Positions 63,734 to 63,934 of a DNA stretch of 64,000 nt are shown here, piece by piece (position 1 is the first letter of the stretch; the number at the start of each line of letters is the position of its first letter). The position numbers and the translations under genes were made by a program. A model generated the notes under the pieces. The model did not search any database and was not told the DNA's origin. It saw nothing but the letters and a program-made list of their open reading frames with translations. This DNA is from Escherichia coli (GTDB lineage Bacteria > Pseudomonadota > Gammaproteobacteria > Enterobacterales > Enterobacteriaceae): the NCBI RefSeq assembly GCF_003334315.1, contig NZ_QOWR01000021.1. One strand, given 5' to 3'.

Positions 63734-63775
63734 GACGCGCAGCGTCGCATCAGGCATTTTTTTCTGCGCCAATGC

Positions 63776-63800
63776 AAAAAGGCCATCCGTCAGGATGGCC
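63776..63800 (-). terminator. rrn operon terminator T1 (downstream of the 5S rRNA)
   Basis: Minus strand ggccatcc-tgac-ggatggcc followed by TTTTT. Confidence 0.85.
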
Positions 63801-63814
63801 TTTCGCATAATTTG

Positions 63815-63934
63815 ATGCCTGGCAGTTCCCTACTCTCGCATGGGGAGACCCCACACTACCATCGGCGCTACGGCGTTTCACTTCTGAGTTCGGCATGGGG
63901 TCAGGTGGGACCACCGCGCTACGGCCGCCAGGCA
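63815..63934 (-). rRNA. rrfG: 5S ribosomal RNA
   Basis: Reverse complement reads TGCCTGGCGGCCGTAGCGCGGTGGTCCCACCTGACCCCATGCCGAACTCAGAAGTGAAACGCCGTAGCGCCGATGGTAGTGTGGGGTCTCCCCATGCGAGAGTAGGGAACTGCCAGGCAT, 120 nt; the operon is called rrnG from its position after kgtP. Confidence 0.95.

Follow-up and report, generated by a model that had tools for sequence, protein, structure and literature searches.

The 3' end of the rrnG operon in an Escherichia coli contig: 5S rRNA gene, single predicted terminator, clipped REP and the yfiS relic

The stretch of DNA analyzed here, 64,000 nucleotides from Escherichia coli (hereafter the window), almost certainly ends inside the 3' end of the rRNA operon rrnG, and its last part holds the 23S-5S spacer, the 5S gene, a single predicted intrinsic terminator, a clipped REP and the gene relic yfiS. 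The last 2756 nt of the window matched positions 2723500-2726254 of the K-12 MG1655 chromosome with 99.93% identity, and the K-12 annotation at this place runs kgtP (minus strand), yfiS (plus), rrfG (minus), rrlG (minus), gltW, rrsG and clpB. This match and the annotation found there identify the tail of the window as the 3' end of rrnG, the same locus as the kgtP-yfiS-rrfG-rrlG order of MG1655 (NC_000913.3, 2724448-2729184). The 5S gene, the spacer, the hairpin, the REP remnant and yfiS show no differences between MG1655 and the window. The sole two differences in the 2756 nt, at 63552 (one extra G) and 63564 (G for A), lie in the upstream region of kgtP and indicate that the window comes from a close relative of MG1655 and not from MG1655 itself. 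Moreover, many E. coli chromosomes, such as those of strains 720632, ML35 and NCTC86, match positions 63400-64000 with 100% identity and are annotated there with rrf next to kgtP, and the adjacency of 5S and kgtP is kept across many Enterobacterales. A preliminary description of the window had placed the 3' end of a minus-strand rRNA operon at its end; the K-12 match bore this out and all four of the elements described were present. The elements of the rrnG end are all already annotated or described, and nothing at the locus is new. Since every E. coli genome has this locus annotated and the ends of rrn operons are textbook matter, the identification by itself is of little consequence.

The course of events that we propose for this region starts with RNA polymerase leaving the 23S gene, which would transcribe the 92-nt spacer and then the 120-nt 5S gene. 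Termination would take place at a single intrinsic terminator consisting of a GC-cored hairpin of 16 bp and a U5 run, and the trailer with the hairpin would make up the 3' part of the 5S precursor, a part that RNase E and exonucleases trim to give the mature 5S. The REP located 15 nt past the hairpin presumably lost both its outer arm and the GTAG tail in a deletion, and the same event would have placed it directly against the 3' end of a defunct yjaB-like acetyltransferase gene encoded on the other strand. The gene yfiS would correspond to the final 20 codons of this relic, with the ATAAG of the REP providing the TAA stop. Farther on, a C-rich tract would be a possible Rho-dependent back-stop ahead of kgtP. 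The features on which this proposal is built are, in order of position in the window:

62193-63491, minus strand: kgtP (alpha-ketoglutarate permease), from the ORF list and the K-12 annotation; the next gene downstream, on the strand of rrnG.
63600-63728, minus (rrn-sense) strand: C-rich, G-poor tract (C 33%, G 12%).
63619-63631, plus strand: GAAAATGGTTATT, identical at 13/13 positions to the yjaB sequence around the start codon (local blastn), in frame with yfiS and 40 nt upstream of it.
63671-63733, plus strand: yfiS (b4783), a 20-aa ORF (MEVGKLGKPYPLLNLAYVGV) annotated in NC_000913.3 and convergent with rrnG.
63729-63756, minus strand: truncated REP; left arm, centre and inner right arm kept, outer right arm (CAGGC) and CTAC/GTAG tail gone.
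63757-63771, minus strand: linker with an A7 run (63757-63763), read from the sequence; on the plus strand, a T7 run directly after the REP.
63772-63808, minus strand: predicted intrinsic terminator of rrnG (RNAfold; 16-bp stem with one bulge, -23.6 kcal/mol).
63815-63934, minus strand: rrfG, the 120-nt 5S rRNA gene (Rfam RF00001 and exact string match to E. coli 5S).
63935-64000, minus strand: final 66 nt of the internal 23S-5S spacer (92 nt) of rrnG, without a difference from that of K-12.

The 5S gene was recognized by the Rfam model RF00001 (5S_rRNA) at 63817-63932 over its full length (model positions 1-120), with a score of 92.8 bits (gathering threshold 38) and an E value of 6e-20. On the minus strand, the string TGCCTGGCGG...CCAGGCAT (63934-63815) is an exact match to the 120-nt E. 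coli 5S and has no mismatch with K-12 rrfG, rrfH, rrfD and rrfC. The preliminary description had called this gene at 63815-63934 from the sequence alone and had named a covariance-model search as the test that might refute it; the search agreed with the call, which was exact to the base. It had likewise taken 63935-64000 for 5S-23S spacer and had placed the 23S gene outside the window. The first of these assignments is confirmed by the identity to the K-12 rrnG spacer, and the second agrees with the K-12 annotation, in which rrlG lies 92 nt upstream of rrfG, so that the 23S gene would start 27 nt past the window end. An Rfam scan of positions 60000-64000 at E values up to 1 gave no creditable RNA family beyond 5S: a match to RNAI (22.8 bits) was merely the terminator hairpin, and a sub-threshold match to mir-6 at 60450-60524 was treated as chance. 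Among the orthologous loci compared, the "E. coli" contig SCPM-O-B-8794 (L117 in what follows) has its 5S gene cut down, next to the terminator, to roughly the final 14 nt, and unrelated sequence fills the rest up to the contig end; this break in 5S probably reflects the edge of the assembly at the rrn repeat.

Between the operon and kgtP lies the plus-strand ORF yfiS, which the preliminary description had missed. Its last codon and TAA stop (63728-63733) overlap the truncated REP, and the interval first described thus overlaps coding sequence. In strain E600003 the reading frame closes with ...VGA-TAG, the TAG belonging to the GTAG tail of the REP; in the window the deletion gave ...VGV-TAA, with the TAA taken from the REP ATAAG. 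The 3' end of yjaB and yfiS are identical at 47 of 53 nt, BLASTP aligned YfiS to YjaB with 17 of 21 residues in common (E 1e-10), and yjaB is the second genomic match of the yfiS segment in E. coli genomes. On the NCBIfam model NF007807, YfiS covers positions 125-145 of 147 and scores 16.5 bits against a cut-off of 134, well short of a full-length GNAT protein. On these comparisons yfiS is to be read as what remains of the C-terminal end of a yjaB-like gene for a GNAT acetyltransferase, not as a member of the family. The 13-nt match at 63619-63631, a weak one with an E value of 0.017 in the small search space of the local blastn, is partly conserved in the Escherichia alleles; it is suggestive only, and the dead gene may have kept its 5' end there after losing about 390 bp internally.

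A related layout is found at rrnE, followed by yjaA and yjaB: the rrn end faces a convergent GNAT gene, yjaB, in one place and the relic yfiS in the other, and the rrnE and rrnG terminators both end in TTTTTGCAT. The DNA identity between yjaB and yfiS over the last 53 nt amounts to 89%. However, the rrnE locus has an intact acetyltransferase (147 aa), with yjaA placed between yjaB and the terminator, whereas at rrnG about 20 codons are left and the REP is placed between. We looked for an intact yjaB paralogue between 5S and kgtP in other Enterobacterales, using contigs scanned by the kgtP motif, and no YjaB match was obtained; the relic therefore appears confined to Escherichia in the sample examined. 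The 5S-kgtP spacers of Enterobacter, Leclercia, Superficieibacter and Siccibacter are longer, 730-1160 nt (loci L032, L103, L081, L025 and L132), and hold on the same strand an unrelated DUF4385 gene of about 150 aa (Pfam E 9e-68) that is not found in Escherichia.

Concerning the possible role of yfiS, two readings were considered, and we regard both as improbable. In the first, YfiS would be a micro-protein derived from the dead yjaB-like gene, its stop made by the REP-fusing deletion, which either gained a function or whose convergent transcription buffers the rrnG end. The salvage history contained in this reading, the C-terminus of a dead gene closed by a REP-made stop, is well supported; the function is not supported. 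The second, to which we give the same low weight, attributes a function to both the clipped REP and yfiS: the micro-protein would be under selection, and yfiS transcription running antisense into the rRNA genes would be halted jointly by the REP remnant, the T7 run and the rrnG hairpin in inverted orientation. This would agree with the strong Shine-Dalgarno sequence (TAAGGAGG) ahead of yfiS, with the truncated allele being the majority one in E. coli, and with the A- and T-runs on either side of the hairpin, as a bidirectional terminator would have them. In addition, yfiS is among the 31 western-blot-validated small ORFs from initiation-site profiling in RiboReport (PMC8921622); the main text of the TIS-profiling preprint does not name it. 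Against it, the ORF is unconserved, with the start codon lost in strain E600003, a frameshift in L117 and a heavily diverged sequence without stop in E. albertii. In E. coli YDC107 (L008, locus positions 807-1507) the yfiS region is broken up by a transposase gene of the IS3 family, homology to the window stopping at 63706, and an equivalent of yfiS was not found in the other Enterobacterales with rrn-kgtP adjacency. Moreover, only TTTCGCAT comes after the hairpin on the plus strand. We consider that yfiS is probably a translated gene relic and not a selected protein. A validated small ORF that is a dead-gene fragment with a REP-derived stop gives reason for caution, as "validated" small proteins are not necessarily functional.

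The same relic bears on the C-rich tract at 63600-63728. In sub-windows of 78 nt its C/G ratio peaks at 5.8, where the 99th percentile over the whole window is 2.0, and its composition is like that of a Rho-utilisation site. The tract could act as a Rho-dependent back-stop for read-through before kgtP, or its C/G skew may equally be merely the antisense of the G-rich gene relic. Albrechtsen et al. reportedly spoke in 1991 of "complex terminators" in the rrnG terminator region.

The terminator hairpin begins 7 nt past 5S, from which it is separated by CAAATTA. According to RNAfold, it reads as RNA AUGCGAAAGGCCAUCC-UGAC-GGAUGGCC(U)UUUUGCAU, and its DNA on the minus strand (63808-63772) is ATGCGAAAGGCCATCC-TGAC-GGATGGCCTTTTTGCAT. 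The GC core is formed by GGCCATCC and GGATGGCC at 63793-63800 and 63781-63788, with the loop TGAC at 63789-63792, and is followed by the U-run UUUUU at 63776-63780. A stable GC-rich stem-loop with a U-run directly after it, as in an intrinsic terminator, is thus present, and we infer that transcription stops at this hairpin, although the U-run has just 5 nt and is broken by GCA. The 95-nt trailer past 5S folded with -38.3 kcal/mol (z = -5.8), and none of 200 shuffles was as stable. A consensus terminator scan of the window did not report the rrnG hairpin, probably because the full extension of the stem consumes most of the T-run. A second predicted hairpin (GCAUUGG.../...CUGAUGC) was not counted because its pairing is lost in other strains; the linker at 63757-63771 differs in length and sequence among strains.

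Several alleles of the loop and core were found at this locus: TGAC in the window, GTCA (the same four bases inverted) in strains 16b and 139 and in L117, GAAA in E. albertii, and a T1-like core CCCAGTCGGAAGACTGGG, near the rrnA/rrnD T1 core CTCAGTCGGAAGACTGGG, in strains E600003, 4/1-1 and SSGNw1. The differences among the four Escherichia hairpin alleles lie in the loop or the inner stem; the stem stays perfect in each of them, with energies between -22 and -27 kcal/mol, which fits selection on structure. Loci with the polymorphic hairpin were L009, L012, L117, L026, L010, L011 and L013.

The preliminary description had called the structure after 5S the T1 terminator. The hairpin is there, but the name T1 is loose, given that rrnG is described with a single terminator (PMC8144298) and that the core differs from that of rrnB T1. 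According to Stenum et al., T1 and T2 occur together in rrnA, rrnB and rrnD only, each of the remaining four operons having one terminator (PMC8144298). We compared the trailers of all seven K-12 rrn operons: one T1 hairpin and a long stretch downstream of it are common to rrnA, rrnB and rrnD, and rrnE, rrnG, rrnH and rrnC each have a terminator of their own. If the rrnG hairpin were the rrnB T1 element, T2 and an rrB-type small RNA should come next and rrnG would be a dual-terminator operon, which we consider very unlikely. The likeness is real, since both structures stand directly after the terminal 5S, form a long hairpin in which an A-run pairs with the U-run, and share the flanks CGAAAGGC...GGCCTTT and the CAAAT directly after 5S, and the T1-like core of the three strains just mentioned sits at the rrnG locus. 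Yet the inner stem and loop of the window are unlike those of T1. The segment of about 150 nt between T1 and T2 that is common to rrnA, rrnB and rrnD, with its small RNA (rrB/rrA/rrF), is missing after rrfG, as is T2; the rrnG trailer diverges after CAAAT and runs instead into the REP and yfiS. The Rfam scan of 60000-64000 described above, with nothing creditable beyond 5S, and the single terminator described for the four operons also argue against a dual terminator and for the single rrnG terminator.

The REP string tgcctgatgcgacgctgcgcgtcttata occupies 63729-63756 and reads TGCCTGATGCGACGCTGCGCGTCTTATA on the minus strand (63756-63729). With up to two mismatches, the 15-mer REP core GCCTGATGCGACGCT has four matches in the window against 0.26 expected; the only exact copy is that at 63741-63755, and two others with one mismatch each belong to canonical full REPs at about 190-230 and 281-321. 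The rrnG copy conforms to the REP consensus, being identical to these full REPs at 15/15 positions of the left arm and 9/9 of the inner right arm GCGTCTTAT, and at 24 of 28 nt overall. After GCGTCTTAT, the full REPs read CAGGCCTACA and the rrnG copy reads ACTCCCACA. The complete palindrome is not present in the rrnG copy, as its outer arm is gone, and the fold energy is -8.1 kcal/mol compared with -21.4 for the full copies. The GTAG/CTAC tetranucleotide that flanks REPs and is the site recognised by REP-associated transposases is also absent, since the window has ACTCCCAC where the full copies have CAGGCCTAC.

Orthologous sequences establish that this copy is truncated and not just REP-like. 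Strain E600003 has at the exact junction of the window a full palindrome with its CTAC tail (...GCGTCTTATCCAGCCTAC), the window being about 10 nt shorter, and strain 16b, L117 and E. albertii carry at the site a full-length REP and 22-34 extra nt. GTAG is present in the REP alleles of E600003, 16b and E. albertii. The truncated junction was found in 4485 of 5426 complete E. coli genomes (83%) and is thus the majority form. The "partial REP" of the preliminary description is therefore truly truncated, but the start given for the whole interval, 63737, has to be moved to 63729 or lower, since the very REP string quoted there reaches 63729. Taking E. albertii as outgroup, the simplest history would be one of nested deletions with the window as the most deleted form, and in this respect the locus is a clean example of REP decay. 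The clipped REP is most likely inert, because the full REP hairpin can no longer form. It is hardly credible that the string resembles a REP by chance, or that it is a complete REP which has diverged: the REP-like part does span just 28 nt and the GTGGGAG that comes next on the plus strand loosely recalls the REP tail GTAGGCC, so that it is readable as a degenerate arm, but GTGGGAG is common to the coding end of yjaB and hence gene-derived, E600003 carries the missing CCAGCCTAC at exactly this junction, the fold weakens from about -21 to -8 kcal/mol, and the identity to the full REPs of the same window far exceeds the chance expectation given above.

The truncated rrnG copy has in common with the E. 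coli REP/BIME elements the left arm TGCCTGATGCGACGC and the inner right arm, an intergenic position and a place beside a terminator. It differs from a BIME in being a single copy, in its missing outer arm and GTAG/CTAC, in its weaker fold and in overlapping a stop codon. A canonical BIME is present at about 120-320 of the window on the minus strand, just past the end of a minus-strand ORF, and consists of two full REPs of identical sequence (TGCCTGATGCGACGCGTAATGCGTCTTATCAGGCCTACA), behind each of which stands a REP of the other type in opposite orientation.
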